DNA of 38,640 nt from Acidobacteriota bacterium (GTDB lineage Bacteria > Acidobacteriota > Holophagae > Holophagales > Holophagaceae), in contig JAJYMZ010000160.1 in assembly GCA_021786615.1 (NCBI GenBank), forward strand, positions 1-38,640. Direction: 5' to 3'. The notes under the pieces were generated by a model. It did not search any database, was not told the origin of the DNA, and saw only the letters and a program-made list of their open reading frames with translations. How positions within the stretch are numbered: the stretch's first letter is position 1; each line of letters starts with the position of its first letter. Made by a program: the position numbers and the translations under genes. Positions 4,191 through 38,640 of this stretch are shown piece after piece.

Positions 4191-4270
4191 CTGGAATCGT
4201 AGCCTCTGCTTAGTCAATGGCCCACGACTGGGTTGTTACCTAAATGCGCGGATGGCGCGGGAGGTTTCGA

Positions 4271-5170
4271 GTGAGATTCTTTCGATACTTGGTAGCCCTG
4301 CTACTCCTTTCCCTGCCCGCCCTCGGGGCCGGGAAGGCCGGGGAGGTCAACTGGAGCCAGTTGAATCCAGCCTTCGGGAAGGCGACTTATGTCAAAGACA
4401 AAGCCGTTTGTGCCAGTTGTCACGAGGATTCGGTCAAAGCCTACGCGGGGACCCTGCACGGCCAGGTGTTCCAGCACGGTTCCAAGGGCGCGCTTCAGGC
4501 GCTGGATTGCGAAGCTTGCCATGGGCCGCGCAGCCTGCATGTGGACAAACCCGATGCCAGCCTGAAACTGTCCATCAAACAATTCACAGCGGTCTGTCTG
4601 CAATGCCACCAAGGCGGCGACCGCATGAATTGGCAGAGCGGCCGGCACCAATCGTCCGAGGCCGGCTGCATTTCCTGCCATTCAGTCATGAAGCAGCAGA
4701 GCGGCAAAGCCCTTTTGTCCAAGCCCACCGAAGCCGCGGTCTGCTACACCTGCCACACCAATGTCCAAGGCGAGCTGCAGAAGACATCGCACCACCCCGT
4801 GCGGGAAGGGAAGATGACCTGCTCCAGTTGCCACAACGTCCACGGCTCTACCGGCAAGTCCCTGCTGAAGGCCGGGTCGGTCAACGAAACCTGCTTCAAC
4901 TGCCATCAGGACAAGCGCGGGCCCTTCCTCTTCGAGCACGCGCCGGTGCGCGAGAACTGCGCCAACTGCCACAACGCCCACGGATCCAACAACGCCAGCC
5001 TGCTGGATAGCAAAGGCTCCTTCCTTTGCCTGCAGTGCCACTCCTATGGCGGCCACATCAACCTGCCCCGCTACAACCGCGTGAGCAATCCCTACGGCCA
5101 GGGCTGCGTGAACTGCCATCTCACCCAGCACGGCTCCAACAGCCCGTCGGGCGCCAAATTCACCCGCTAA
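4271..5170 (+). CDS. periplasmic decahaem c-type cytochrome, DmsE/MtrA/PioA/MtoA family
   Basis: Ten CXXCH motifs: CASCH, CEACH, CLQCH, CISCH, CYTCH, CSSCH, CFNCH, CANCH, CLQCH, CVNCH. Family-typical RGPFLFEHAPV is present. Signal peptide MRFFRYLVALLLLSLPALGA. GGGAGG Shine-Dalgarno lies 6 nt before GTG 4271; an alternative in-frame ATG is at 4244. Confidence 0.9.
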   Translation: MRFFRYLVALLLLSLPALGAGKAGEVNWSQLNPAFGKATYVKDKAVCASCHEDSVKAYAGTLHGQVFQHGSKGALQALDCEACHGPRSLHVDKPDASLKLSIKQFTAVCLQCHQGGDRMNWQSGRHQSSEAGCISCHSVMKQQSGKALLSKPTEAAVCYTCHTNVQGELQKTSHHPVREGKMTCSSCHNVHGSTGKSLLKAGSVNETCFNCHQDKRGPFLFEHAPVRENCANCHNAHGSNNASLLDSKGSFLCLQCHSYGGHINLPRYNRVSNPYGQGCVNCHLTQHGSNSPSGAKFTR

Positions 5171-5183
5171 AGGAGGCATCAAC

Positions 5184-7685
5184 ATGAGCACGAAACAGGT
5201 CATTGGATCCTTGCTTCTGCTGGCGCCCATGGCGGCCCTGGCACAACAGCCAAAGCAGGTCGAGAGCAAAGGTGAATTCGCGGTGGAAGGCCGCAGGATC
5301 GAAGTGGACCCCGCATCCTCGAAATTCAACGAGTACAGCGATGTCCGCAATGGATTTCCCCTCTACAAGCTGGGGCTCAACTTCCTGGATACCGGGAGCG
5401 GCCTCTACTTTGATTTCAATGGGAAGAACATCCTCCGGAAGGATCAGACCCTCCGGATGGAGATGGGCCGTTATGGGAAATGGAGTCTCGTGCTGGACCG
5501 CGACGAGCTTCCCCACAACTTGAGTTTTAAAGCCAAGACCCCTTTCCGGAATCAGGGAGGTGGGCTATTCACGGTGGACTCCCCGGTGCCCATTCCGAAC
5601 CGGAATCTCACGCCCACCGCCACCCAGCTCCTGGCGAATGATGCGGCCACCGCCGCCTGGCTGGACACCAACCTGAGGGGGACGAGCCTGGGCACCCAGC
5701 GGGACAAGACCGGCGCCACGCTCGTAGTCACGCCCACGGAACACCTGAAGTTCCGCCTCAGCCTTTCGGATGAGCGCAAAGTAGGTTCCAAGCTCGGCTA
5801 TGGCGCCATTGGGGATCGGCCACCCCGCACCCTGAACATCCAGTTGGCCCAGCCGGTGGACTATTCAACCCGGGAAATGAAACTGGAGGCTGAATACAAT
5901 CGCTCCAGGTACCAGGCGCAGTTGACCTATGCCGTCTCGAGTTTTAGCAATGGCATTGACACCTTCCGGTGGCAGAACATCTACACGAACTATAGCGGCG
6001 GCAATACCTTTGATCAGTGGACTGGACATCGGGTGGCCACTTTCGGCCAGATTCCGCTGGCTCCCGACAACCGCTATCAGAACGCCACGCTATCCCTGGG
6101 GATCAACCTGCCCTCAGCCAGCCGCTTGTCCCTGATGGCCGCGTACGGCCGGATGGAACAGAACCAGACCTTGCTGCCCTACAGTTCCAGCAGCTTCAAT
6201 GGCACCACGGTGGATTTCAGCAGCACGGCCTCCCTGCCCAGGAAGACCGCGGATGCCAAGATCACCACCAAGCGGGTGAACCTGGATTACACCATCAACC
6301 CGGCGAGCCGGCTGAACCTGAGGGCCTTCGTCCACTACTACGGCCTGGACAACGGCACGCCCCAGAGCAACTGGTGGTACATCACCAGCGATGCCATCCC
6401 GGGCGGATCCACCGCCACGGTGACGAACCCCACCGAAAAGAACCAGAGGATCAACCGGCCCTACTCTTTCAACCAGACGAATGCCGGCCTGGAGGCTTCC
6501 ACCTATCTTTCGTTCTGGCGGACTTCCCTCGGCCTGACCCTGGAACGCGAGAGCAAGAACCGCGAGTTCCGTGAAGGCAACACGCGGGAGACCAGGCTTC
6601 AGGGCAGCTTCCGTTCCCGTCCGGCCAACTGGCTCACCCTGCGCGGGAAATACCTCCTCGGCAATCGCGATGGAGGCGCCTATAACACCTTTGTTTCCGC
6701 GAGCACTTACTGGTATGACACCACGGTGGCCAACGACAATGATAATCCGGCCCTCAGCTTCACCAACCACCCGGACATGCGCAGGTTCGATGTTTCAGAC
6801 CGCAAGCGCGACCAGTGGGATCTTGCCGCCATGCTCGCGCCCATGGATGCCCTGAACTTGACCTTCACCTACCGTGAGCGGAAGGATGACTTCGCTTCTG
6901 GCGTGGTACGCACTCAGCCCTTGCTCGGGAATCGCTTCGCGGCGACCGATGCGGACCGGGCGGCTTACACGCCCGGCAATCAGCTGGGCCTGCTCAAGAA
7001 CAATAGCCAGCGCTATGCCTTTGATCTTTCCTATGCGGCCAGCGAGCGGCTGACCCTCAACGCCTTCGCCAGCCGGGACACCTTGGATCTGACCCAGCGA
7101 GGCATCGAGTTCAACGAGGGCAACAAGCTCAACCCGACCACCGCGTCCCTGGCCACCAACGATCTCGGGCCCTGGACCCGCGCCAACTCCCAATGGATGG
7201 CCCTCACCAGGGACACCACCGACACGGTCGGCCTAGGCGCCGCCTTCGAGATCATTCCCAGCAAGTTCCGCGTTGCCACGGACTACTCCTATTCCAATGG
7301 AGCGGTGGGCATCTCCTATAGTGGATTTGGCGCCGTGTCTTCCCTCAACCCTGGGACCACCCTGCCGGACAACACCCAGTATGCGTTCCGCACGCCTCCC
7401 ACCGTGCGCAACAAGCGCACCACGCTCAACGTGAACTTCGCCTACCAACTCACGAAAAATCTGGCGGCCGGGCTCCGCTACGCATACGACCGCTACGACT
7501 TGAGCGACTGGATGCAGGAAGCCAACACGCCCTGGTTCGAATCCGTCGGCAGCCAATACCTGCTGCGGGACAGTTCCTCGGCGACTTCCAACCAGTGGGG
7601 CAACCGCCTGGTCAACCTGGGCAGCTACCTCGCCCCGACCTACGATGCCCATTTTGTCTCCCTGAGTTTGAAGTACACCTTCTAA
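5184..7685 (+). CDS. MtrB/PioB-family outer-membrane beta-barrel (decahaem-associated porin)
   Basis: 833 aa, starting 13 nt after the decahaem gene with an AGGAGG Shine-Dalgarno. Signal peptide ends ...APMAALAQQ. Contains an SKFNEYSDVRNG motif. Composition is rich in alternating Y/T/S/N/G, and the C-terminus is ...SLKYTF. There are no cysteines at all. Confidence 0.8.
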   Translation: MSTKQVIGSLLLLAPMAALAQQPKQVESKGEFAVEGRRIEVDPASSKFNEYSDVRNGFPLYKLGLNFLDTGSGLYFDFNGKNILRKDQTLRMEMGRYGKWSLVLDRDELPHNLSFKAKTPFRNQGGGLFTVDSPVPIPNRNLTPTATQLLANDAATAAWLDTNLRGTSLGTQRDKTGATLVVTPTEHLKFRLSLSDERKVGSKLGYGAIGDRPPRTLNIQLAQPVDYSTREMKLEAEYNRSRYQAQLTYAVSSFSNGIDTFRWQNIYTNYSGGNTFDQWTGHRVATFGQIPLAPDNRYQNATLSLGINLPSASRLSLMAAYGRMEQNQTLLPYSSSSFNGTTVDFSSTASLPRKTADAKITTKRVNLDYTINPASRLNLRAFVHYYGLDNGTPQSNWWYITSDAIPGGSTATVTNPTEKNQRINRPYSFNQTNAGLEASTYLSFWRTSLGLTLERESKNREFREGNTRETRLQGSFRSRPANWLTLRGKYLLGNRDGGAYNTFVSASTYWYDTTVANDNDNPALSFTNHPDMRRFDVSDRKRDQWDLAAMLAPMDALNLTFTYRERKDDFASGVVRTQPLLGNRFAATDADRAAYTPGNQLGLLKNNSQRYAFDLSYAASERLTLNAFASRDTLDLTQRGIEFNEGNKLNPTTASLATNDLGPWTRANSQWMALTRDTTDTVGLGAAFEIIPSKFRVATDYSYSNGAVGISYSGFGAVSSLNPGTTLPDNTQYAFRTPPTVRNKRTTLNVNFAYQLTKNLAAGLRYAYDRYDLSDWMQEANTPWFESVGSQYLLRDSSSATSNQWGNRLVNLGSYLAPTYDAHFVSLSLKYTF

Positions 7686-7704: not shown

Positions 7705-7740
7705 GCAAATCCCACCCTTGACCGGGGGGGATTTGCTTTT
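7705..7740 (+). terminator. intrinsic terminator after the barrel gene (lies between convergent genes)
   Basis: GCAAATCCC (7705-7713) pairs with GGGATTTGC (7728-7736). The stem can extend through the CCC/GGG runs and is followed by TTTT (7737-7740). Confidence 0.7.
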
Positions 7741-9137
7741 CAGGTGCTCTGAGCTTGAATTTCGTGGAAGGCCTCGGGCAACGTGATCATTGCCCGTGTC
7801 CCCATACCTTCCTGGCTCTGGATCTCGAAGGTTCCGCCATGCAGCCGCACGATGCTCTGCACGATGGCCAGGCCCAGCCCCGCTCCACCTCTTTGCTGGC
7901 CTCGGGAGGGATCTCCGCGTAAAAAACGTTGGCCCAGCCGAGTGAGAATGCTGGAAGGAATGCCTTCGCCTTGATCTTCCACTTCAAGGATGCGATTCCC
8001 GGATTGCGCTGAAGCCCGCAGGATCACACGGCCTCCCGGCCTTGAATGCCGGATCGCGTTGGCCAGGAGATTGTGCAACGCCCGGCGAAGCAGGATTGGG
8101 TCTCCGGTCAATTCCTGATCGCCTGAAACATCAATCGCGATGGTGACCTGGCTCTCTTCCGCGATAGATTCGAAAGGCGCCGCGGCGCCCTGCAGCAGTG
8201 CCTCGGCATTCAGGGTAGCCCGCTCGATTTTCGTAGCGGGATCCTCCGCCCTTGCGAGGAATAGCATCTGCTCGATGAGCGCGGCCATGTGATCCAGCGT
8301 CTCTATCATTCCCGAGAGCGATTCGCCCGTTTCCAGGGAATGTTCCCCCCTGGAAAGCATTCCTTCCACTTCCAGGCGAAGGGAGTGGACCGGCGTCCTC
8401 AGGTCATGGGCCATGTCGCTGTTCATCTCACCCAGGCGCGTGAAAGCTATTTCCAGCCTGCCCAGCGTGTCGTTTAAAGCGAGGGCGATGGGTTCCAGTT
8501 CCCTTGGAAATTCAGTGGGGTCGAGCCGGGTCTTAAGCGTTTCTGGCCGTATGTTCCCCGCGCGCTGGGCCAATTGTTTCAAGGGCCCAAGCGCATGGTG
8601 CATGAACCAATAGCCGATCACCGCGGCCAAGAGCGGAATGAGACCCAAAACCCTAAACAAGGAAGCCCTGAATTTCCGCAGCAGCGCGTCTTCTATGTCG
8701 TGATTGCGGGCGATCTGGATCCAGCCATCGCGGTACTCCACGGAAAGCAGCGTGAGGCTGTGGCCCAGCTCCTTTCGGCCATCCATGAAGGTCCAGGGGC
8801 GTTCCGGAATTGGATAGATGGCCATCGGCACGAGCTGGTCCATCCCCTTTGATTCAAGCAGGACTTTTTTCCTGGAATCCGTCAGCCGGACCTGGAGGTG
8901 CTCGCCAACGTCCAGGATTTCCTTGTCCAAAGGCAGCTGGTCTTCGTGCAAGCGGTGCAGAAGAACCTTGGCGGTGTTCACCAGATCCTTGGCTACCGTG
9001 ACCGTGATCGCATGGTGGAAAGATGAGTAGAGGTAGATGCCGGTGGCGGCCGCCATGAGCGAAATCCCCAGGCCAGCCGATACCGTGAGACGGAGCAGGA
9101 TGGAACGCCGGACTTTATCAAGCATTGGGGGCTTCAA
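7740..9137 (-). CDS. CusS/CopS-like (heavy-metal type) sensor histidine kinase
   Basis: Two TM segments flank a periplasmic domain, followed by HAMP. The FTRLGEMNSDMAHDLRTPV H-box resembles CusS FTRQSNFSADIAHEIRTP. N-box LLANAIRH and G-boxes DQGEGI and GGAGLGLAIV are present. An alternative ATG at 9125 gives an 8-nt overlap with the regulator stop. Confidence 0.88.
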   Translation of the reverse strand: MKPPMLDKVRRSILLRLTVSAGLGISLMAAATGIYLYSSFHHAITVTVAKDLVNTAKVLLHRLHEDQLPLDKEILDVGEHLQVRLTDSRKKVLLESKGMDQLVPMAIYPIPERPWTFMDGRKELGHSLTLLSVEYRDGWIQIARNHDIEDALLRKFRASLFRVLGLIPLLAAVIGYWFMHHALGPLKQLAQRAGNIRPETLKTRLDPTEFPRELEPIALALNDTLGRLEIAFTRLGEMNSDMAHDLRTPVHSLRLEVEGMLSRGEHSLETGESLSGMIETLDHMAALIEQMLFLARAEDPATKIERATLNAEALLQGAAAPFESIAEESQVTIAIDVSGDQELTGDPILLRRALHNLLANAIRHSRPGGRVILRASAQSGNRILEVEDQGEGIPSSILTRLGQRFLRGDPSRGQQRGGAGLGLAIVQSIVRLHGGTFEIQSQEGMGTRAMITLPEAFHEIQAQST

Positions 9138-9795
9138 GCACGTACCCTACGCCACGCTGGGTGCGGATGAGTTTCTCAGGGAAGGGATCATCCACTTTTT
9201 TCCGCAGGCGCCGGACCGCCGCGTCCACAAGATTGGGATCGCCGTCAAAAGCCATGTCCCACAGCTCTTCGGCTATGCGGGCACGAGTGACGATATGTCC
9301 TTTGTTCCGTGCCAGGATTTCAAGCAAGGTGTATTCCTGGGCGCTCAGGACCAGATGCGTTCCTCTGCGAAAAACCTTTCTTTGCGCGGGCACCAAGGTC
9401 AGGTCCCCGATGGCCCAGGTTCGCGGTGCCGCTTCGGGCCCACGGCCAAGCAGGTTGTGGATTCGCAGGAGCAATTCAGAGAAGGAGAAGGGTTTGACGA
9501 GATAGTCGCCGCCCCCCAGTTCAAGCCCGCGGATGCGGTCCGGGAGCGCGTCCCGGGCGGTCAGGAAAATCACTGGCGTCAGGATTCCGGCGGCGCGCAA
9601 TTCCGTCAGCACCGTAAAGCCGTCCATTTTTGGCAACATGACATCCAGCACCAGGCAATCAAACTCGATGGCCTTGGCAAGGGACAATCCCAGCTCCCCA
9701 TCCAGGGCCAATTCCACGCTGAACCCATGTTCATTGAAGGCCCGCTCCAAGGCCTTGGTGGCCCTGGGATCATCCTCGACGATCAGTAGTTTCAT
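9118..9795 (-). CDS. OmpR/CusR-family response regulator
   Basis: Starts MKLLIVEDDP. Has ...LDVMLPKMDG...YLVKPFSFSELLLRI plus a winged-helix C-terminus (LTLVPAQRKVFRRG...IRTQRGVGYVL). I trimmed the 26-aa N-terminal extension of the ORF track (9873). Confidence 0.9.
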   Translation of the reverse strand: MKLLIVEDDPRATKALERAFNEHGFSVELALDGELGLSLAKAIEFDCLVLDVMLPKMDGFTVLTELRAAGILTPVIFLTARDALPDRIRGLELGGGDYLVKPFSFSELLLRIHNLLGRGPEAAPRTWAIGDLTLVPAQRKVFRRGTHLVLSAQEYTLLEILARNKGHIVTRARIAEELWDMAFDGDPNLVDAAVRRLRKKVDDPFPEKLIRTQRGVGYVLEAPNA

Positions 9796-10116
9796 CCCCA
9801 GCGCCCATCCATGAAAGTCATAGCTCTTGCGTAGATGAATTGTGATTGAAGTCCGGGCCTCACGTCTAACCATTCAGCCAACGCCCGGTACACCGAAAGA
9901 AATTGTGGGCGAGCGTTAAGGACTTGCATTCAGCGTCCACGGTGGACGTGCTGACGAATGGGGACCACAAAACCGCCGAGCTGCTCACAGACAGTTGCCT
10001 GAAATGCCACTGCTGCCATCGTCATCCTGCCAAAAGGGCAGGGGCTGGCTCATGGCCTTTTCCTCCGCCAATCCGCCCACCAGCAGAATCAGGATGGCGC
10101 TCTCGTGGTTCAGCCG

Positions 10117-29823: not shown

Positions 29824-30245
29824 CAGTGCTTGGGGGCAGCCGGTGCAGCCTTGGCCACCACCGTCACCGTCGCGGTATCCGCGACACCCGGATGATCCTC
29901 CCGCTGCGCCTTCACGTGGAAGGTACCGGGCGTTGAAGGCGCGGTGTAGAGGCCGGTATGCGTGATTTCGCCGCCACCGGCTTCCACCACGGTCCACGTC
30001 ACGGGCTGGCGGGGGTAGCGGGGGCCATCGGGCTCGTAGTTGATCAAGGCGCTGAAGCTTTGGGTGGCGCCGGGAGCCAGGGTCACGGCTTTGGGACTGA
30101 TGGAGAGGGTGGGCTTGAAGGCGACGGCGTGGTCGCTTTGGAGGCGGCCCATGGCCGCGCGGCCCTTCCGGCCAGGAGGATTGAGGTCCCCGCCGGCGCA
30201 GGCCATCAGCGGGATCGCAAGAAACAGGACCGGCAGGATTTCCAT
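29823..30245 (-). CDS. lipoprotein with bacterial Ig-like (Big_2-type) domain
   Basis: Lipobox IPLMAC. SISPKAVTLAPGATQSF...GLYTAPSTPGTFHV. Its TGA shares one nucleotide with the pyrD ATG (29823). Confidence 0.5.
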   Translation of the reverse strand: MEILPVLFLAIPLMACAGGDLNPPGRKGRAAMGRLQSDHAVAFKPTLSISPKAVTLAPGATQSFSALINYEPDGPRYPRQPVTWTVVEAGGGEITHTGLYTAPSTPGTFHVKAQREDHPGVADTATVTVVAKAAPAAPKH

Positions 30246-31047: not shown

Positions 31048-31449
31048 TCACTCCGGCTTGCGCTCCAGGGTCCGCAGGTACAGCACCACCTGGTTGATCT
31101 GCGCATCGGTCAGGGTGTGGCCCCAGGGAGGCATCAAGGGGGAAAGGCCTACACCCGCGCCGCCGCGGCGGATGGCATCAGCCAGTTCTGCGTCGGTCTT
31201 TTTCTTTTGAAAAGCCGGATCAGAATAGTCGCGCGGATGAGGATCGAGGTTGAAGGCGTTGAACCCGTCCCCCGCGCCGCTCTCGCCATGGCAGAGCATG
31301 CAGTAGTGCTGATAAGTGTCCTTTCCAAGCCGCAGTTCATAACTGAGAGGCGCGGCCCCGGCGGTTGCGGCGAGTTTGACTTCCTTGGTTTTCTTGGAAC
31401 ACCCCGCCAGTAAGACCAGCCCCAGGGCTACGATGAGCGTACGATTCAT
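31048..31449 (-). CDS. monohaem class-I cytochrome c lipoprotein
   Basis: Lipobox LLAGC, a single CMLCHG, and LMPPW as the Met-ligand region. ATGA overlap with the upstream gene. Confidence 0.8.
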   Translation of the reverse strand: MNRTLIVALGLVLLAGCSKKTKEVKLAATAGAAPLSYELRLGKDTYQHYCMLCHGESGAGDGFNAFNLDPHPRDYSDPAFQKKKTDAELADAIRRGGAGVGLSPLMPPWGHTLTDAQINQVVLYLRTLERKPE

Positions 31450-33473
31450 CCCTTGCCTCCGCTCGATTTCTGGGCGCCCGGGGCCCGAAGGGTTTCAAGG
31501 TAGGCCGTGATCCGCAGCGCATCGGTATCGGTGAGCCCGTAGTTGGGGCATCGCACGTCGGCGCGCCAGGCCTGGGGATCTTTAAGCCACTTGAATACCC
31601 AGCCCGGCTTGAGCCGCGTGGATGTATCCGTGAGCGGGGGGCCGTAGTATCCACCGGATGGGCCGATGATATGGCAGGCCCGGCAGCCATTCGCCACGTA
31701 TAGGCGCTGGCCTTCGGAAGCATTTTGGTCCGAGGCCGGGCGGCCCGCGAAGGGATCTTCCGGGATGGCCGGATTGACGTAGAAGCTCTCGATGGCGTCC
31801 GCCAGCTTCTCCGCCTCATCCTTCGGGATGCGAAAAATCGGCATGCGCTCTTCGAGAATGGGGCGGATGGTGAAGGAGAGCATCAGGTAATTGACCAGCC
31901 AATCGCGCTTGACCTTGCTGCCTTCGAAGGTGAGCGGCGCCGTTGAGATGTCCCCTCCCTGGGTTCCGATCTGATGGCAGGACAAGCAGCGGTATTGTTG
32001 GACCAGCTGGCCGATGGCGCCGCCTGGAATGGGCGCGGAGGTGCCATGGGAAACGGGATGGTAGGCTTCTGGCACGGGTTTGGAGCCGAGGGATAGCAAG
32101 GCGGTGACGATGGCCTGCACGTCCTCGTTCTTGAACCCATAGTTGGGCATCTTGAGCCCGGCGCTGAAGGAACGCGGGTCCATGAGCTTGGCGGCGGTCC
32201 AGGCGGGAAGCGTCCTGGCGAGATCCGTCCTCCGGCCGAAATCCAGCGAGGCGGCGCGCTTGTCGCCAAGGCCGTTGAGGTCCGGCCCGAATTTCTCCTT
32301 GATTGTGCCCTGGGCAGGATCGTGGCAGGCGAAGCATCCGAGGCCTCGAAAGGCTTTCGCGCCCTTTTCAGCCAGGGTCTGGTTGACGTGCAGCGGGTCC
32401 AAGATTCCCTCAGGCGCATCGAAGTCCTTGAGCTCAGTCTCGAAGTAGGCGACCAGATCGCGCGATTCCGAATCCGAGAAGTGATATCTGGGCATCCGGG
32501 TTTCAGGCGAAAAAGCATGGGGGTCGCGGATGAAGGCCAGGAGCCAGCCGCGGGAGGCCATGGAGGCTACTTTGGAGAGTTCCGGGGCCGAACCATTGCC
32601 CTTGCCTTCGACGGTATGGCAGGTAATGCATCTCGATTCGGAGAAGATTTTCTTGCCGGAGACCGCATCGCCCGGTGCCTCTTGAGAGGCCGCCGCCACC
32701 TTGGCCGCCAGTTCCGGGTTCACGGGCCTGGAGAACAAATAATGGGTCAATTCCTCGATTTGCTGGGTGTCCAGCTGGAAATTAGGCATTGAAGAATTCG
32801 GATCCATGGCCCGGGGGTTTTTCAGCCATTGGCGCACCCACTCCCCGCCAGTCTTGACGGCCACTGAGTTGAGGGGCGGCGCCTCCGAACGGAACTGCTC
32901 ATGGCCCCGCACCGAGTGGCAGGCATAGCAACCCGCCTTGGTGATCAGGGCCCGGCCCCGGGAGAGGAGCGCTGCCTGGGGCACAGCTTCGGAAGTGTGG
33001 CACCGGCCACACCCAGCCTCGATGTTTGCCAGCGGCGTGAGGGGCGAACTGGAATCGGCGGTGGTCCCATGGGCGTCCCCGCGAACCGTGGCAAGGCCCT
33101 CGCCGCTGTGGCAGGAAGTACATCCCATTCGATCAGAATCGCCGGGCGTGTGGGCCGTCCAAGGATGCAGGCGATGGGGTTCGGGTGCGTTGGCCATGGC
33201 AGGATCCGCGACGCCCTGGTGGCAGGTAGTGCAGCGGTCCACACGGTTGCCGAAGTCACGCAACCAGATCTGGCTGATGGCCACGGGGCGGTTCTGGTAG
33301 GTCTTTGCATCCTTCAGGCTGTGAGCCCGGCTGGCTCCGAGTTTCCGGAACTGCTCCTGGATGGAACGGTACTCCCGGAAATAGTTCTTGGCGGGTGAAA
33401 TGGCCAATGTGAACAGGAATGCCACGCTCGTGATGGCGAAGACCCGGCGGAGCCGGAATGAATCGGTTTTCAT
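31446..33473 (-). CDS. membrane-anchored octahaem cytochrome c (3 clustered haems + 5 class-I-like modules)
   Basis: Start at ATG 33473 (ATGA overlap). One N-terminal TM helix. Eight CXXCH motifs: CTTCH, CTSCH, CGRCH, CYACH, CITCH, CFACH, CLSCH, CRACH. Confidence 0.85.
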   Translation of the reverse strand: MKTDSFRLRRVFAITSVAFLFTLAISPAKNYFREYRSIQEQFRKLGASRAHSLKDAKTYQNRPVAISQIWLRDFGNRVDRCTTCHQGVADPAMANAPEPHRLHPWTAHTPGDSDRMGCTSCHSGEGLATVRGDAHGTTADSSSPLTPLANIEAGCGRCHTSEAVPQAALLSRGRALITKAGCYACHSVRGHEQFRSEAPPLNSVAVKTGGEWVRQWLKNPRAMDPNSSMPNFQLDTQQIEELTHYLFSRPVNPELAAKVAAASQEAPGDAVSGKKIFSESRCITCHTVEGKGNGSAPELSKVASMASRGWLLAFIRDPHAFSPETRMPRYHFSDSESRDLVAYFETELKDFDAPEGILDPLHVNQTLAEKGAKAFRGLGCFACHDPAQGTIKEKFGPDLNGLGDKRAASLDFGRRTDLARTLPAWTAAKLMDPRSFSAGLKMPNYGFKNEDVQAIVTALLSLGSKPVPEAYHPVSHGTSAPIPGGAIGQLVQQYRCLSCHQIGTQGGDISTAPLTFEGSKVKRDWLVNYLMLSFTIRPILEERMPIFRIPKDEAEKLADAIESFYVNPAIPEDPFAGRPASDQNASEGQRLYVANGCRACHIIGPSGGYYGPPLTDTSTRLKPGWVFKWLKDPQAWRADVRCPNYGLTDTDALRITAYLETLRAPGAQKSSGGKG

Positions 33474-34183
33474 GACTGCACCATATGGGTCCATGGCCAG
33501 ATGAACGACCAGCCTGGGCCACGGAAGAATGTGCCAATGATCGTCAAGGCCGCCGCAAGGATGACAAACCAGGTCATGATCCATTGCGGAAGCGAAAGAC
33601 GGGCCATGGCCTGTCTCCAGGTTCCTCCAGTGGAACCGCCTCGCGCCAGGTACATGGCCCCGGCCACAGCGGCGGTGGGCACCGCGGCAGCCCAACATTG
33701 GAAGCCCGCGAAAAAGAGCACCAGCGCGGATGCGGCAACCGCAAGGATCTGGGTGGTCCTCTTCTCATCCTTGCCTTCCCACAGCGGACCCGCGCTCAGG
33801 TTGATCCGGGCGTAGGGGATCACCGCGAGAGCGACTACCACCAGGCCGGGGATGAGCACACCAGCCACGATGGGCGGATAATAGTGGAGCAGTTCCTGCA
33901 ATCCCAGGAAGTACCAGGGAGCTTTGGCCGGATTGGGAGTCTCGACGGGGTTCGCGATCCCCTCTAGCGGCGCGTTGAACACGAGCGCCAGGATCGCCAG
34001 GAAGATCACCACGATCTGGAAGAGGATGACTTCCCGGATGATCAGGTGCGGGTAGGCCATCACGAATTTTTCAGAGCTTCGCCGGACGGAGGGGCGGAGG
34101 TCGGGCCGGAGCAGGGCCACGCGCCGCGGCGTCTCGACAGGGTCGTTGGATTCAACCGCGGTGAGCGGGGGAAGGGCGCTCAT
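33470..34183 (-). CDS. cytochrome b C-terminal half / b6f subunit-IV-like protein
   Basis: [17 protein letters not shown] (PEWY-region equivalent) plus several TM helices. ATGA overlaps at both ends. Confidence 0.8.
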
Positions 34184-34950
34184 GGCTCCTCCTCATGGAA
34201 AGCATCGGGTGCCTCCTCGGAGGGGCCCTTGACGCCGCCGTCTTTCCGGATGCGCCAGATGTGGACGCCAAGGAACAAGAAGAGGACGACCGGCAGGAGC
34301 ACGCAGTGCAGGACGTAAAAACGCAGCAGCGCGTTCTCGGAAACGGCGTTTCCACCCAACAGGAAGAAGCGGAGCTTGTCGCCGATGACGGGCGCTTCCC
34401 GCGCCATGTTCGTTCCGACCGACACGCCCCAGAACGCGAGCTGGTCCCACGGGAGAAGATACCCGGTGTAGGAAAGGAACAGCGTCAGGACAAGGAGAAC
34501 CACCCCGACGACCCAGTTGAACTGGCGCGGGGGCTGGTAGGCTCCGTGGTAGAAGACGCGCAGCATGTGGAGGAAAGCGCCAAACACCATCAGGTGCGCC
34601 CCCCACCGGTGCAGGTTGCGGAGGAACACGCCGTTGTCCACGACGTATTTAAGTTCCTTCATGTCCTGGTATGCCTGGGGGACTGAAGGGTGGTAGTAGA
34701 ACATCAGCGGAACGCCCGAGGCGACGAGCACGATCACGCACACCATCGTGATGCCGCCCAGCCAATACGTATGCTTGAAGCGAAGGGCCTTCTCCCGCAC
34801 TTTGACCGGATGCACATGGAGAAAAAGGTTCTCGAAAACGATGAGCGACCGGTTGCGGCTCGTCTCGGCAACGCCATGCCGGACGATGGAGCGGTAGACC
34901 GAGGTTCCACGGAACCATCGGCCAAGGGAATCGAGCGAGGGAATGTTCAT
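34180..34950 (-). CDS. cytochrome b (b6-type N-terminal half)
   Basis: Helix B: [15 protein letters not shown], with 13 residues between the His ligands. Helix D: [16 protein letters not shown], with 14 residues between them, which is the b6-type spacing. [12 protein letters not shown] is also present. Confidence 0.9.
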
Positions 34951-35438
34951 GCGCGGAACACCTTTCCATGGGGGATGGTGATGGCGGTGTCCACCACGAG
35001 CTCTCCCTTGTCATCCACCTGCACATCAAGCCAGGGAAGCGCGCGAGGCGCCGGGCCATGAGTCACGTTGCCTTCCAGGTCGAACTTGCTCCCGTGGCAA
35101 GGACAGGCGATGAGCCCTTCATCCGAGACGTAGCGCGTGATGCACCCCAGGTGCGTGCAGACCGCGGAAAGGGCGAACACGCCGCCGGCCGTGCCGATGA
35201 CGAAGGCCCTTTGCTCCTTGTTGAAACGCACGGTGCCTTCGGTGTAATCAGACGGATTCCCGGCCTTGAATTTCGTGGGTGGCTCGAACAGAACTTTGGG
35301 TTTCAGAAAATCCAAGGTCACCACGCCCGCGCCCACCGCGGCGATGGCACAGGCCCCAAGGCCGACCCGGTTCATGAACTGCCGCCGGGTTGGGTCGTCG
35401 TCTTCGAGCAAGAGTTCCTCAGGCGGATTGTTCGACAC
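34947..35438 (-). CDS. Tat-exported Rieske [2Fe-2S] protein
   Basis: CTHLGC and CPCHGSKF boxes, with twin-arginine [18 protein letters not shown]. Start is ambiguous. GTG 35438 overlaps the upstream gene by 20 nt. TTG 35411 lies 4 nt after a GAGGA and 7 nt after the upstream stop. ATG 35537 would overlap by 119 nt. Confidence 0.88.
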
Positions 35439-37269
35439 GGGGGCCAGACTGTGGTTGGGTTCTGAAGCTCTGCATGGTGATGGTCCCCACGGGGCAGCGC
35501 GCGGCGCAGAGGCCGCACCGGATGCAGGTCTCCTCATCCTTGATGAAGATCGCGCCCTGGCGCCGGCCTTCCCACAGGATGGGGGCGAGTTCCCGGGCCG
35601 CGTCGGGCAGCGTTTTGATCAGGCTGGAAGGCAGGATTTCGATGCAGTCTTCGGGACAGATGTCCTGGCAACCTCCGCAAAGAATGCACTCGGTTCCGTC
35701 CTCGGGAATCTGTTCGAAGATGGTGTTGGTCCAGCAATGCAGGCAGCGGGTCCCTTCAAGCTGGGCGGCGCCTTCACTGAAACACTCCTCCACTTCGGCG
35801 ATGCCGATGCGGCGGGAAATGGGGCGCGTGGGTGGATGCTGCCTGGGAATCCCCTCATAATCCAGCGCCCTTTCGTAGCGGGACGGAATGTCTATTTCGA
35901 CGGTGACTTCATCCACGGGGCAGGGGCGTCCCTGGAGGTGCTCATCAATGGATCTGGCGGCCTGCTTTCCGTCCGCGATGGCTTGGATGGCGATGCGGGG
36001 GCCGAAAGCGGCATCGCCGCCCGCGAAGATGCCCGGCGCCGTGGTCGCAAGGGTGTCCGGGTCAATGACGATCCTGCCTTGCCGCGTTTCGACGCCATCT
36101 TCGGCTGAAAGGAAGGAAAAGTCTCCGGTCTGCCCGATGGAGACGATGACCGTGTCGGTGGGCACGATCTCCTCGGAACCTTCGTGGAAGGTCGGAGCGA
36201 AGCGCCCGTTTTCATCGAAGAGGCGGGAAACCTGCCTGAATTCGATGCCCGTGACGGCACCCTTCTCGCCCACCAGCCGTTTCGGGCCGACGCTATGCAT
36301 GAAATGGATGCCTTCCCGCAGGGCTTCGTCAATTTCTTCCCTGGCCGCAGGCATTTCCGCCTCGGACTCCAGGGAGCACACCACGACGTCCCGGGCGCCG
36401 AACCGCACGGCGCTGCGAGCCACATCCAGGGCCTGCACCACCGAAAGGTTCCGTTCCATCCGGATGCTTTCGCCACCGCGGGCGGCCGTGCGGGCCACGT
36501 CCAGGGCCACGTTGCCGCCACCGATGATGACCACGCGGTGGCCCATCTCGACTTTATAGCCGAGGTTGATGTTCAACAGATAATCAATGCCTTTGAGCAC
36601 CCCATCGAACTCCATGCCGGGGATGGTGAGATCCCGGCTGCGCATGGCGCCGACGCCCAGGAAGATGGCCTTGTAGCCCTGCGCTTTTAAATCGGTCAGT
36701 GTGAGCCCTGAGCCCAGCCTGACATTGGTTCTGAGTTCGACGCCGAGGGACAAGATGGCATTCACTTCCAGTTGGATGAGTGCTCGGGGCAGCCGGTACT
36801 CGGGAACGCCCAGGCGCAGCATTCCACCGGCTACGGGCGCCGCCTCGAAAATGGTGACCGGATAGCCCAGCAGCGCTAGGTCATGGGCGCAGGCCAGTCC
36901 GGCGGGGCCCGAACCGATCACCGCGACCTTTTCACTTGGGTGCCGCGCGGCCCGCTGTCCATAAATTTCAGAAAGGATCGAGAGGTCCAGCATGCTTTCC
37001 ACGCCGAACCTCTCGGAGACAAATCGTTTCATGGCCCGGATGGCGATGGGCGCGTCCAGTTCCCCCCGCCGGCAAACTGCTTCGCAGGGGGCGGCGCAGA
37101 TGCGGCCGCAAATTGAGGCCAAGGGATTGGGCCGGCGAGCCACGGCATAGGCTTCGCGGTACTTCCCCTGCGCAATGAGCGTGACGTACTTGCCCGCTTC
37201 GGTATGCACCGGGCAGGCCCATTTGCAGGGGAAATTCTTTTCAAGCCACTCCTGGCTGACATCGGCCAT
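35419..37269 (-). CDS. GltD/SudA-like NAD(P)H-dependent Fe-S flavoprotein with C-terminal 2x[4Fe-4S] ferredoxin domain
   Basis: GltD-type N-terminus: CKWACPV...NPLASICGRICAAPCEAVC. Two dinucleotide folds: VAVIGSGPAGLACA and VVIIGGGNVALD. IFAGGD is present. The C-terminus has CLHCW, CILCGGCQDICP and CIRCGLCAARCP. No signal peptide. Confidence 0.88.
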   Translation of the reverse strand: MADVSQEWLEKNFPCKWACPVHTEAGKYVTLIAQGKYREAYAVARRPNPLASICGRICAAPCEAVCRRGELDAPIAIRAMKRFVSERFGVESMLDLSILSEIYGQRAARHPSEKVAVIGSGPAGLACAHDLALLGYPVTIFEAAPVAGGMLRLGVPEYRLPRALIQLEVNAILSLGVELRTNVRLGSGLTLTDLKAQGYKAIFLGVGAMRSRDLTIPGMEFDGVLKGIDYLLNINLGYKVEMGHRVVIIGGGNVALDVARTAARGGESIRMERNLSVVQALDVARSAVRFGARDVVVCSLESEAEMPAAREEIDEALREGIHFMHSVGPKRLVGEKGAVTGIEFRQVSRLFDENGRFAPTFHEGSEEIVPTDTVIVSIGQTGDFSFLSAEDGVETRQGRIVIDPDTLATTAPGIFAGGDAAFGPRIAIQAIADGKQAARSIDEHLQGRPCPVDEVTVEIDIPSRYERALDYEGIPRQHPPTRPISRRIGIAEVEECFSEGAAQLEGTRCLHCWTNTIFEQIPEDGTECILCGGCQDICPEDCIEILPSSLIKTLPDAARELAPILWEGRRQGAIFIKDEETCIRCGLCAARCPVGTITMQSFRTQPQSGPRVEQSA

Positions 37270-37274
37270 GTTAG

Positions 37275-37853
37275 TTACTTCGCGATCTCAAAATCCGCCT
37301 GGGTCGCGCCTGAGACTTTCACGGTCCTCTGAGTCCCTTTGAGCTTCTGATGCCAGACCTTCACCGTTAAGGAACCATCCGGAACGCCCGGAATGGTGTA
37401 ACTGCCATCGGCCTTCGTCACGGCAAAGTAGGGAGTAGGCACGGCCACCACAAAGCCTTCCATTTCTGGGTGGACCTTGCAGAGCAGCGTCGCAGTGCAT
37501 TCCGTCTTGAAGGTGAAGCTCTTCTTCTGGCCCTGGGGCCAGGTGCCGAGGTTGAACTTGCCGCAGCAGGCATCCGGAGAGAAGACGTTGTGCAGCACCG
37601 CGTCGGAGTTCTTGAAATCCACGGTAGTGCCGATGAGCACTGGCATCACGTGAGGGGTGAAAACCAGGTTCTTCTGGTCTATTTCGGCGTGCTTGGCGGG
37701 GGCGGTGAAAGTCTTGCCGGGGACCGCAGCCACGTAGACGACGGCGTTGGCGCTGTCGCGGACGCCTTTGCAGGTGACCTTTCCGTGGATGTCACCAGCG
37801 CTGAGGCCCGTGGCAAGGCTGAGGGTGAGCGCGCTGAAGAGGATTGTTTTCAT
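37275..37853 (-). CDS. secreted type-1 copper (cupredoxin) protein with carboxypeptidase-regulatory-like flanks
   Basis: Signal peptide. GTTVDFKNSDAVLHNVFS supplies His ligand 1. LLCKVHPEMEGFVV gives Cys-x2-His-x2-Met, an amicyanin-type loop. The His-to-Cys distance is 37 aa. The C-terminus has DGSYTIPGVPDGSLTVKV. Confidence 0.72.
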   Translation of the reverse strand: MKTILFSALTLSLATGLSAGDIHGKVTCKGVRDSANAVVYVAAVPGKTFTAPAKHAEIDQKNLVFTPHVMPVLIGTTVDFKNSDAVLHNVFSPDACCGKFNLGTWPQGQKKSFTFKTECTATLLCKVHPEMEGFVVAVPTPYFAVTKADGSYTIPGVPDGSLTVKVWHQKLKGTQRTVKVSGATQADFEIAK

Positions 37854-37870: not shown

Positions 37871-38640
37871 TTAAAAGGCGACACGCAAGACGGCGGCGAT
37901 GTCGAAGTTCTGGGATACGTTCAGGTCCTTGTGGTACTCGAGCATGGCCTTGACGTTCGCGGCCAGCAGGTAGCTGAGGTTTGCGTTCATGAAGCGGAGG
38001 GGCTTGATGCTTGTATCCCCGGGCGCCAGGCGCTCGTAACGGAGCGATGCCTGGAGGGGCGGCAGGATGACGTAGTCAGCCTGGACGAACCAGCCATTGA
38101 AGTCGCGGCTGCTCTCGGAAAGGATGAGCGTGTTGCCCGAGTCGCGGAGCTGGAGCTTGTCGTTGCCGTGGAGGATGACGCCGAAGAGATTCAGATCCCC
38201 GAACATCCAGGAGGCGAAGAGACCTGTGCGGGTGTACTGCGTGTCCTGCATGTGAAAGACGACAGGGTTGCCATTGGCGTCCGTGGCGGAGCCGGTGGTG
38301 GGATCCACCAACATTCCACTGGGGTCGGTGACCGCGTTGTCAATGCCCGTGCCGTTCCCGCTGAGGGCCAAAAGGCCGATGCGGAAGGAATTCTCACGCC
38401 AGTTTTCCGGGGGCAGATTCACGCCGGTGGTATCCCCATCGAGGCCCATTCCGCCGAACTTGTAGTCCACGCGAGCGTAGAAATCCTTGTGGGAGTTGTT
38501 GTTGAAATTGCCGTTGGGCAGGCCTGTGGCATCCATGCCGCCGGGGCCGATCTTGGAGGCGAAGCCGAAGGTGTAGAAGAAGCGGTGGGCCGCCACGCCG
38601 TAGACCTCGATGCCCCGCACCCGCGCAGGGAGGCTGACGA
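37871..38640 (-). CDS. probable outer-membrane beta-barrel protein (N-terminus lies outside the window)
   Basis: The frame stays open to nt 38640. Shows alternating aromatic/polar strand pattern, Gly/Asn/Asp-rich loops, and C-terminal ...AAVLRVAF. The stop lies 17 nt before the cupredoxin start. Confidence 0.5.
   Translation of the reverse strand, partial: VSLPARVRGIEVYGVAAHRFFYTFGFASKIGPGGMDATGLPNGNFNNNSHKDFYARVDYKFGGMGLDGDTTGVNLPPENWRENSFRIGLLALSGNGTGIDNAVTDPSGMLVDPTTGSATDANGNPVVFHMQDTQYTRTGLFASWMFGDLNLFGVILHGNDKLQLRDSGNTLILSESSRDFNGWFVQADYVILPPLQASLRYERLAPGDTSIKPLRFMNANLSYLLAANVKAMLEYHKDLNVSQNFDIAAVLRVAF

Follow-up and report, generated by a model that had tools for sequence, protein, structure and literature searches.

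Why does a gene for a soluble flavoprotein related to the small subunit of glutamate synthase (GltD) lie immediately upstream of the gene for a Rieske protein? The question is raised by contig JAJYMZ010000160.1 (assembly GCA_021786615.1) of a bacterium of the Holophagaceae (Acidobacteriota); positions 1 to 38,640 of that contig, counted in nucleotides (nt), are called the window here. The minus-strand open reading frame at 35419–37269 encodes an iron-sulfur (Fe-S) flavoprotein of 616 amino acids, and the genes that follow it encode the subunits of a Rieske/cytochrome b module. A first-pass annotation, made from the sequence, had proposed that the flavoprotein gives the membrane complex a cytoplasmic port for NAD(P)H (reduced nicotinamide adenine dinucleotide or its phosphate) or for ferredoxin. 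Gene linkage, overlapping junctions and phylogeny support a port of the NAD(P)H type, and the sequence favors NAD(H); a port for free ferredoxin is not indicated. Our reading, to which we give a probability of about 0.6, is that the flavoprotein would act as the cytoplasmic, peripheral NAD(H) subunit of a bifurcation-capable Rieske/cytochrome b complex of the type that carries APWY at the Qo site.

Genetic coupling of the flavoprotein to the Rieske/cytochrome b module

The open reading frame begins with ATG and has a GC content at third codon positions of 0.76, in a window of 61–62% GC. It is real far beyond chance, since 7999 database proteins match its product at E ≤ 1e-20, the best 120 of them being 75–92% identical. 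Relatives were sought with a 12-sequence alignment in a single genome of each species, and the proteins of the operon were then mapped on 80 loci. A relative was taken as full-length when the match included the C-terminal dicluster domain, and full-length relatives were counted when they had at least 1.5 kb of downstream DNA. Rieske and cytochrome b genes accompany 44 of the 48 full-length relatives (in 43, at most 365 nt downstream) and none of the 29 shorter relatives, which match only to about residue 512–577. The genetic coupling of the flavoprotein to the APWY-type Rieske/cytochrome b module is thus near-obligate. The linked loci span more than 10 phyla, including many classes of Acidobacteriota as well as Verrucomicrobiota, Planctomycetota, Actinomycetota, Eisenbacteria, Kryptoniota, Zixibacteria, Lentisphaerota, Abyssubacteria, Calditrichota, Ignavibacteriota and Chlamydiota (Waddliaceae).

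Among the checks named by the first-pass annotation was a phylogeny, and on the point of grouping with ordinary GltD the outcome is in its favor. In a neighbor-joining tree of 400 columns, rooted with Escherichia coli GltD, all linked flavoproteins fall in one clade, along with representatives whose clusters hold 'Candidatus Brocadiales' proteins. They therefore group with homologs from the Brocadiales order, far from the outgroup E. coli GltD.

The arrangement of the genes is equally tight. On the minus strand, the order is porin-like protein, cupredoxin, flavoprotein, Rieske protein, cytochrome b, subunit IV, octahaem cytochrome c and monohaem cytochrome c. The operon genes are contiguous, with junctions of −4 to +7 nt; the flavoprotein begins 5 nt after the blue-copper gene, and ATGA-type overlaps of 4 nt are found at the last four junctions, from the Rieske to the monohaem cytochrome c gene. 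At the junction between flavoprotein and Rieske genes, the stop codon TGA (35421–35419) is overlapped by a GAGGA (35420–35416) that ends 4 nt upstream of a candidate TTG start at 35411, which leaves a gap of 7 nt; a second candidate, GTG at 35438, gives an overlap of 20 nt. Both starts are in frame with the TRRQF motif of the Rieske protein and upstream of it, exactly as the first-pass annotation had described this junction. In relatives of other lineages, the two genes often overlap by 4 nt (ATGA) or 8 nt (GTGnnTGA, ATGTCTGA), and because such start/stop overlaps recur, the tight coupling is a family trait. The eight-gene layout is the same in Geothrix terrae and in a metagenomic relative. 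Between positions 30000 and 38640, a promoter scan returned 0 promoter-like sites, and a terminator scan returned 8 terminator-like sites against 7.3 expected, which is no signal.

Other arrangements were also seen among the mapped loci. In a locus from the Holophagaceae (L031), the Rieske and cytochrome b genes are upstream of the flavoprotein gene, about 2.7 kb apart. In the Actinomycetota loci L026, L032, L036 and L052, the order is flavoprotein, cytochrome b, subunit IV and Rieske protein, and no downstream multihaem cytochrome c match was obtained. A seeming flavoprotein-Rieske fusion of 773 amino acids (P0045, at 8001–10322 of L001) was rejected: a 1-nt frameshift lies inside '...CAARCP', near the C-terminus of the flavoprotein, and the true flavoprotein stop and the overlapping GTG start of the Rieske gene are intact in another frame. 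The flavoprotein of L019 is frameshifted and was left out of the motif counts.

Predicted cofactors and dinucleotide preference of the flavoprotein

The flavoprotein combines a GltD-like module with a C-terminal ferredoxin-like domain (Table 1). The module, as defined in PMC8097209, is a cysteine domain for two [4Fe-4S] clusters beside a flavin domain with adrenodoxin-reductase-like folds. The window protein has the cysteine domain (Fer4_20) and the folds for flavin adenine dinucleotide (FAD) and NAD(P)H, both within a Pyr_redox_2 match over residues 114–434 (E 7e-32), but not the linear order of GltD. Its cysteine motifs, C15xxxC19P, C54x3C58x3C62x3C66, C509xxC512, CILCGGCQDIC (528–538) and CIRCGLCAARC (582–592), are invariant or nearly so across 39 relatives of 34–80% identity, and C509, C512 and the cysteines of the C-terminal domain are invariant. 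The N-terminal GltD-type pattern and every other cysteine motif quoted by the first-pass annotation are therefore present and conserved. In the C-terminal domain, the ligands would be C528/531/534/538 and C582/585/588/592, with a linker of 43 residues in between; the clade linked to Rieske and cytochrome b genes has this domain. Altogether, sixteen conserved cysteines in four groups make four predicted Fe-S sites, and the predicted cofactor content is FAD plus four [4Fe-4S] clusters.

Some details of the earlier description had to be amended. Of the two GxGxxG folds that it listed, the first is indeed present as GSGPAG, whereas the second is GGGNVA, a GxGxxA variant. The extra motifs for two [4Fe-4S] clusters in the C-terminal extension are there as well; the CLHCW element, by contrast, does not belong to that extension and is part of a permuted GltD segment. 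This segment, GIAEVEECFSEGAAQLEGTRCLHC (residues 489–512), corresponds to residues 26–50 of E. coli GltD, FVEIYEPFSEGQAKAQADRCLSC, with the consensus 'EV..FSE..A....RCLxC'. In E. coli GltD, the RCLxC segment precedes the N-terminal CxxxCP, whereas in the window flavoprotein it lies behind the flavin domains, as it also does in NfnABC-type and PRK12771-type relatives. Two ligands of the GltD-type clusters, C509 and C512, would come from this permuted element.

The cytoplasmic character that the first-pass annotation had given to the protein is borne out by its hydropathy: it has neither a transmembrane segment nor a signal peptide, the peak Kyte-Doolittle mean over 19 residues being 1.34. An AlphaFold2 model built from the 39-sequence alignment reached a mean predicted local distance difference test score (pLDDT) of 87.7 and a predicted template modeling score of 0.88.

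The dinucleotide fold holds a further clue. A YRR follows strand beta-2 in the NADPH-binding modules 4ylf_B, 5jca_L, 9n5u_A, 9bov_A and 8oh5_C and in E. coli GltD, and it is replaced by (C/S)LE in the window flavoprotein and in every relative linked to Rieske and cytochrome b genes. An acidic residue at this position of strand beta-2 is the classical signature of NAD(H) binding. Because (C/S)LE stands where NADPH-dependent modules have YRR, the flavoprotein would be expected to prefer NAD(H) over NADP(H).

At residues 254–291, the protein also carries an insertion of about 25 residues that repeats the helix 'ALDVAR[TS]A.R.G' behind GGGNVA, the two copies being ALDVARTAARGG and ALDVARSAVRFG. 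HMMER places both copies on a single helix of NfnI, NfnABC and Stn. In the AlphaFold2 model, the insertion is a loop of low confidence (pLDDT <50 at residues 268–289). It is specific to the clade, yet missing in some members of the linked clade.

Comparison with anammox, Geobacter and cytochrome b6f complexes

The closest known counterparts of this gene set are found in anammox bacteria. In Kuenenia stuttgartiensis, the complexes Kuste4569-4574 and Kustd1480-1485 include the NAD(P) oxidoreductase subunits Kuste4570 and Kustd1483, and, in structural models, four Fe-S clusters of the flavoprotein bridge cytochrome b to FAD (PMC12954380). Complexome co-migration of the Kuenenia subunits is cited in the same paper, which gives Rieske potentials of +303 and +335 mV (the latter for Kustd1480) and proposes that bifurcation at the Qo site is used to reduce NAD(P)+. 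In its AlphaFold3 models, an additional haem b at the dimer interface, beside the flavoprotein, is bound by an N-terminal histidine of cytochrome b (His43 of Kuste4571, His62 of Kustd1481).

Our own comparison was made with relatives from the Brocadiales order (loci L084 and L085, proteins P0220/P0290) and not with the Kuenenia sequences themselves. P0220/P0290 are 35% identical to the window flavoprotein over residues 6–603. In L084 and L085, the genes run flavoprotein, Rieske protein, cytochrome b, subunit IV, multihaem cytochrome c and HAO-like octahaem protein, with a hexahaem cytochrome c counted in L085, and this composition matches that described for the anammox complexes. In common with the latter, the window encodes a GltD-like flavoprotein, a Rieske protein, a split cytochrome b, subunit IV and a membrane-anchored multihaem cytochrome c. 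The flavoproteins are alike in having four Fe-S sites plus FAD, and in having the same best structural homolog, NfnABC (9bov/9bp5). The Rieske Ser/Phe pair is common to the window and Kustd1480, and APWY is found at the Qo site both in the window and in the anammox-type L085.

The window cytochrome b keeps the four canonical histidine ligands of haem b (H114, H128, H215 and H230) and gains a fifth from an N-terminal extension, His45 ('NLFLH'), which is conserved in every one of the 48 linked loci. It aligns with 'NFMLH' in the cytochrome b of L085; L084 lacks that extension. By analogy, His45 may be the equivalent of His43 in Kuste4571. Differences are found as well. At the haem-cN position, the Brocadiales-order proteins L084 and L085 have 'FCLGG', and the window cytochrome b has Trp ('YWLGG') instead of the Cys of b6. 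The periplasmic module consists of an octahaem cytochrome with class I domains, a monohaem cytochrome c and a cupredoxin gene in the window, and of hexahaem/octahaem and HAO-like proteins in the anammox systems. The gene order of the window is also unlike that described for Kuenenia, and its host belongs to the non-anammox Holophagae. Even so, the window system is best read as one of the Rieske/cytochrome b complexes of the anammox type, which bear an NAD(P) oxidoreductase, in a Geothrix-like bacterium of the Holophagae from mine drainage.

In the complex of the Brocadiales bacterium of locus L084 (positions 4406–5026 and 5235–6014), cytochrome b has 'FCLGG' and no N-terminal histidine extension, the Rieske protein is of the G-F type, and the Qo motif is AAWY. 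Because of these motifs, the flavoprotein-linked complexes are heterogeneous even within the Brocadiales order.

The idea of a flavoprotein-bearing complex is not new, since it was proposed for anammox bacteria, in which the pairing was first noted and which the first-pass annotation had already named. We found no explicit description of a linkage between flavoprotein and Rieske/cytochrome b genes outside anammox bacteria in the open-access literature, of which our coverage is incomplete. A cluster of PetAB and multihaem genes was reported in Zixibacteria with the flavoprotein unmentioned (Castelle 2013).

The membrane part of the complex also has relatives without a flavoprotein. The Qo motif APWY defines a cross-phylum clade of which no member had been characterized at the time (Kao and Hunte 2014, PMC4122944); it goes with Rieske proteins of mid-to-high potential, among which the S-F class is 'Mid+' (PMC4122944). 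The window system has both APWY, in a 13-letter stretch of subunit IV that is invariant across loci, and a Rieske protein of the S-F type ('CPCHGSKF'). APWY is shared with the ExtO/ExtP/ExtQ/ExtS proteins of Geobacter (PMC4122944, PMC5877670). ExtP and ExtQ are the best NCBIfam matches of the window cytochrome b (270 bits) and subunit IV, respectively, but both fall short of the equivalog cut-offs of 290 and 150. A porin-like gene (extI in Geobacter) and genes for cytochromes c of the multihaem and lipoprotein kinds occur in both clusters, whereas no flavoprotein gene is described for the one of Geobacter. Cytochrome b6f resembles the window system in its split cytochrome b and subunit IV, four histidine ligands, a Rieske protein with CPCHGS exported by twin-arginine translocation (Tat), and a likely copper-protein partner. 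Unlike b6f, the window complex lacks the haem cN Cys and cytochrome f, has APWY in place of PEWY, and adds a cytoplasmic flavoprotein.

Proposed mechanism and direction of electron flow

In the mechanism that we propose, menaquinol would be oxidized at the Qo site. One electron would go up in potential to the Rieske protein, the c haems and the cupredoxin, the type-1 copper protein being a plausible candidate for the high-potential periplasmic partner. The second, strongly reducing electron would cross the membrane via the b haems, possibly including one on His45, and would pass along an Fe-S wire to FAD and NAD+, rather than to quinone at a haem-cN Qi site. Four clusters, two of the permuted GltD type and two of the ferredoxin type, would make up this wire from FAD to the cytochrome b haem on the negative side, with the C-terminal ferredoxin domain presumably leading toward cytochrome b. 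Overall, this would amount to a quinone-based electron bifurcation that is reversible. The potentials of menaquinone and NAD+ are −74 mV and −320 mV, respectively, and an acceptor near +300 mV could bring the second electron down to about −450 mV. By analogy with the anammox complexes, the flavoprotein would be physically docked onto the membrane subunits; the role given here to His45 and the direction of electron flow are likewise inferred. Whichever the direction, the flavoprotein module probably ties the quinol chemistry of the membrane directly to NAD(H).

The alternative that fares best is the same complex run in reverse, as an entry port for NADH, and we hold it to be possible, if rather doubtful. 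Electrons would pass from NADH to FAD, the four Fe-S clusters and haem bN, and would then reduce menaquinone at a negative-side site or complete a Q cycle, so that the complex would be an NADH:quinone or an NADH:cytochrome c/cupredoxin oxidoreductase. The path from NADH (−320 mV) through the Fe-S clusters and haem b to menaquinone (−74 mV) is downhill, and many hosts are heterotrophs, for example among the Terriglobia, Bryobacteraceae, Verrucomicrobiota, Planctomycetota and Waddliaceae. The window also encodes an MtrA/MtrB-type conduit, as expected of a metal reducer that exports electrons. In addition, GltD-like modules normally pass electrons from NAD(P)H to their partner (PMC8097209). A dedicated NADH dehydrogenase, however, would not need a Rieske/Qo module, and the Rieske Ser/Phe pair and APWY go with a mid-to-high-potential Rieske protein in menaquinone organisms. 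The surplus driving force on the low-potential branch is the argument for NAD(P)+ reduction in the anammox work (PMC12954380), and it speaks against NADH entry here as well.

Several observations nevertheless weigh against our reading of the flavoprotein as the NAD(H) subunit of a bifurcating complex. In none of the 48 linked non-anammox loci is there a Cys at the haem-cN column, which holds W, Y, F, G or R instead, and because this Cys is absent, haem bN and the flavoprotein may be joined otherwise than in the published anammox models. Moving an electron to the negative side of the membrane costs membrane potential, so that NAD+ reduction is only marginally exergonic, and in heterotrophic hosts with ample NADH its oxidation makes equal physiological sense. 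The NAD(H) assignment depends on a single motif. Four full-length relatives (L039, L056, L074 and L075) have no Rieske or cytochrome b neighbors. Support for the linked clade is moderate, as unlinked relatives are kept out of it in 65 of 100 bootstrap replicates; the relative that most often enters it, in 32 replicates, comes from a locus with cut-off context. Finally, in three metatranscriptomes from the same mine-drainage study, no contig spans the locus, and they are uninformative on co-transcription.

As a separate observation on L039, this full-length member of the clade lies on a Capsulimonadaceae chromosome with no Rieske or cytochrome b gene within 6 kb on either side.

Only tentatively do we extend the bifurcating mechanism to the linked loci at large. 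In this extension, quinone-based bifurcation to NAD+ would be a widespread means of energy coupling in bacteria: menaquinol-oxidizing complexes of the APWY type would have given up quinone reduction at the haem-cN/Qi site and would make NADH by way of a fifth haem, bound by His45, of four Fe-S clusters and of FAD, with the high-potential electron going to the blue-copper protein and the c haems. Acidobacteriota, Verrucomicrobiota, Planctomycetota, Actinomycetota, Chlamydiota, Ignavibacteriota and other phyla may be included.

Until now, anammox bacteria have been the basis of the proposal that Qo bifurcation serves to reduce NAD(P)+. We know of no anammox bacterium in pure culture, nor of one that can be genetically manipulated; the genus Geothrix and several other host groups are believed to have cultured representatives, and in such hosts the proposal becomes directly testable. 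The variant features of the present family, namely the missing haem cN Cys, the invariant extra histidine, the NADH-type signature and the cupredoxin, also narrow down what is essential to the mechanism. Moreover, the names 'glutamate synthase beta-like' and 'formate dehydrogenase beta subunit' are carried by thousands of database entries that are probably subunits of respiratory complexes.

An improbable alternative: the flavoprotein as an independent enzyme

Another explanation is that the flavoprotein is an independent soluble enzyme that is merely co-transcribed with the membrane subunits. It could be a ferredoxin:NAD(P) oxidoreductase of the NfnB/SudA type or, as the Joint Genome Institute annotates it, the beta subunit of an NADP-dependent formate dehydrogenase. 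It has no membrane anchor, and homologs are named 'formate dehydrogenase beta subunit' by several sources. In sequence and fold, the nearest solved structures are indeed the GltD-like NADPH modules of NfnABC and StnABC (9bov, 9n5u and 8oh5), followed by NfnB/NfnI-L, DPD and GltD: the match to 9bov_A has a sequence E of 3e-95 and a Foldseek E of 5e-48 with a template modeling (TM) score of 0.69 on the query, NfnI-L reaches 0.79 on the target, and the Foldseek probability is 1.00 for NfnB, DPD and GltD. The permuted RCLxC is a further point in common with the NfnABC type.

We nonetheless consider this explanation improbable. The cut-offs of the curated models for AegA, NfnB, YgfK and related proteins are missed; the protein matches PRK12771 best, a generic 'NAD(P)-binding protein' model on which it obtains 439 of the 516 bits required. 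The 38.6-kb window and two related loci, L001 and L002, contain no recognizable nfnA/sudB, fdhA or gltB. The operon therefore lacks the NfnA/SudB (PyrK-like FAD/[2Fe-2S]) or formate-dehydrogenase-like partner with which NfnB, SudA, NfnABC and StnABC work, and the flavoprotein has SLE in place of their YRR. Unlike the Nfn-type modules, it ends in a discrete domain for two [4Fe-4S] clusters and is linked to membrane cytochromes. Nothing in the window flavoprotein points to flavin-based bifurcation. The linkage to Rieske and cytochrome b genes, near-universal inside the clade and absent outside it, and the frequent start/stop overlaps also argue against mere co-transcription, as does the co-migration of the anammox homologs with the membrane subunits (PMC12954380).

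That the gene encodes an ordinary glutamate synthase small subunit, with GltB encoded elsewhere, has a negligible chance of being true: the GltD-like module is shared, but the GltD/GOGAT models score far below their cut-offs (TIGR01317, 216.6 against 447.7 bits; TIGR01318, 245.3 against 483; TIGR01316, 281.5 against 471.8), E. coli GltD is an outgroup in the tree, the neighbors are Rieske and cytochrome b genes and not gltB, and the permuted Fe-S element, the added ferredoxin domain and the loss of YRR all set the protein apart.

Other features of the operon and host setting

Table 1. Positions in the window of the flavoprotein, its parts and the neighboring genes of the operon
Feature	Position	Strand	Basis
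Fe-S flavoprotein, GltD-like module plus C-terminal 2x[4Fe-4S] domain, soluble	35419..37269	−	open reading frame, Pfam, AlphaFold2, Foldseek
GltD-type Fe-S domain Fer4_20, residues 12–87, with C15, C19, C54, C58, C62, C66	37009..37236	−	Pfam, E 8e-17
FAD-binding GSGPAG, residues 119–124	36898..36915	−	motif reading
NAD(P)H-fold GGGNVA, residues 250–255, GxGxxA variant	36505..36522	−	motif reading
Insertion of ~25 residues repeating helix 'ALDVAR[TS]A.R.G' (residues 254–265, 279–291)	36397..36510	−	HMMER, AlphaFold2
'SLE', residues 299–301, end of strand beta-2, dinucleotide fold	36367..36375	−	comparison with solved modules
Circularly permuted GltD N-terminal element GIAEVEECFSEGAAQLEGTRCLHC, residues 489–512	35734..35805	−	match to E. 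coli GltD
C-terminal 2x[4Fe-4S] ferredoxin-like domain	35494..35688	−	Pfam Fer4_7 dicluster, residues 528–595, E 3e-9
Tat-exported Rieske [2Fe-2S] protein, TRRQF, CTHLGC...CPCHGSKF, 'S-F' type	34947..35411	−	Pfam, motifs
b6-like cytochrome b, 256 amino acids	34180..34950	−	Pfam, NCBIfam, motifs
Subunit IV-like membrane protein, Qo motif APWY	33470..34183	−	Pfam, NCBIfam
Membrane-anchored octahaem cytochrome c, 8 CxxCH	31446..33473	−	Pfam, motif count
Monohaem class I cytochrome c, lipobox LLAGC	31048..31449	−	Pfam
Secreted type-1 (blue) copper protein, 192 amino acids, C-terminal CarboxypepD_reg-like beta-sandwich	37275..37853	−	Pfam Copper-bind
Porin-like outer-membrane protein gene, cut by window end	37871..38640	−	first gene of conserved cluster

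The copper protein scores 23.3 bits on Copper-bind, against a cut-off of 21.2, and all 21 homologs compared keep its residues H88, C125, H128 and M131. Its gene is in the same place in loci from Acidobacteriota, Eisenbacteria, Zixibacteria and Calditrichota. The octahaem cytochrome c is composed of a multihaem c7/NrfH-like part and class I cytochrome c domains. The porin-like product has no Pfam match; its counterpart in Geothrix terrae is 496 amino acids long.

The closest flavoproteins (75–92% identical) come from Acidobacteriota of the Holophagae/Geothrix type, the one of Geothrix terrae being 81% identical, and near-identical DNA was found in mine-drainage metagenomes. About 28 kb from the Rieske/cytochrome b operon, on the plus strand, positions 4244–5170 encode an MtrA-like multihaem cytochrome c with paired CxxCH motifs, and positions 5184–7685 encode an outer-membrane beta-barrel of the MtrB/PioB type (E 1e-107). 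The pair is predicted to form a porin-cytochrome conduit for extracellular electron transfer. A two-component system is encoded on the minus strand at 7740–9873, adjoining the porin-cytochrome genes.

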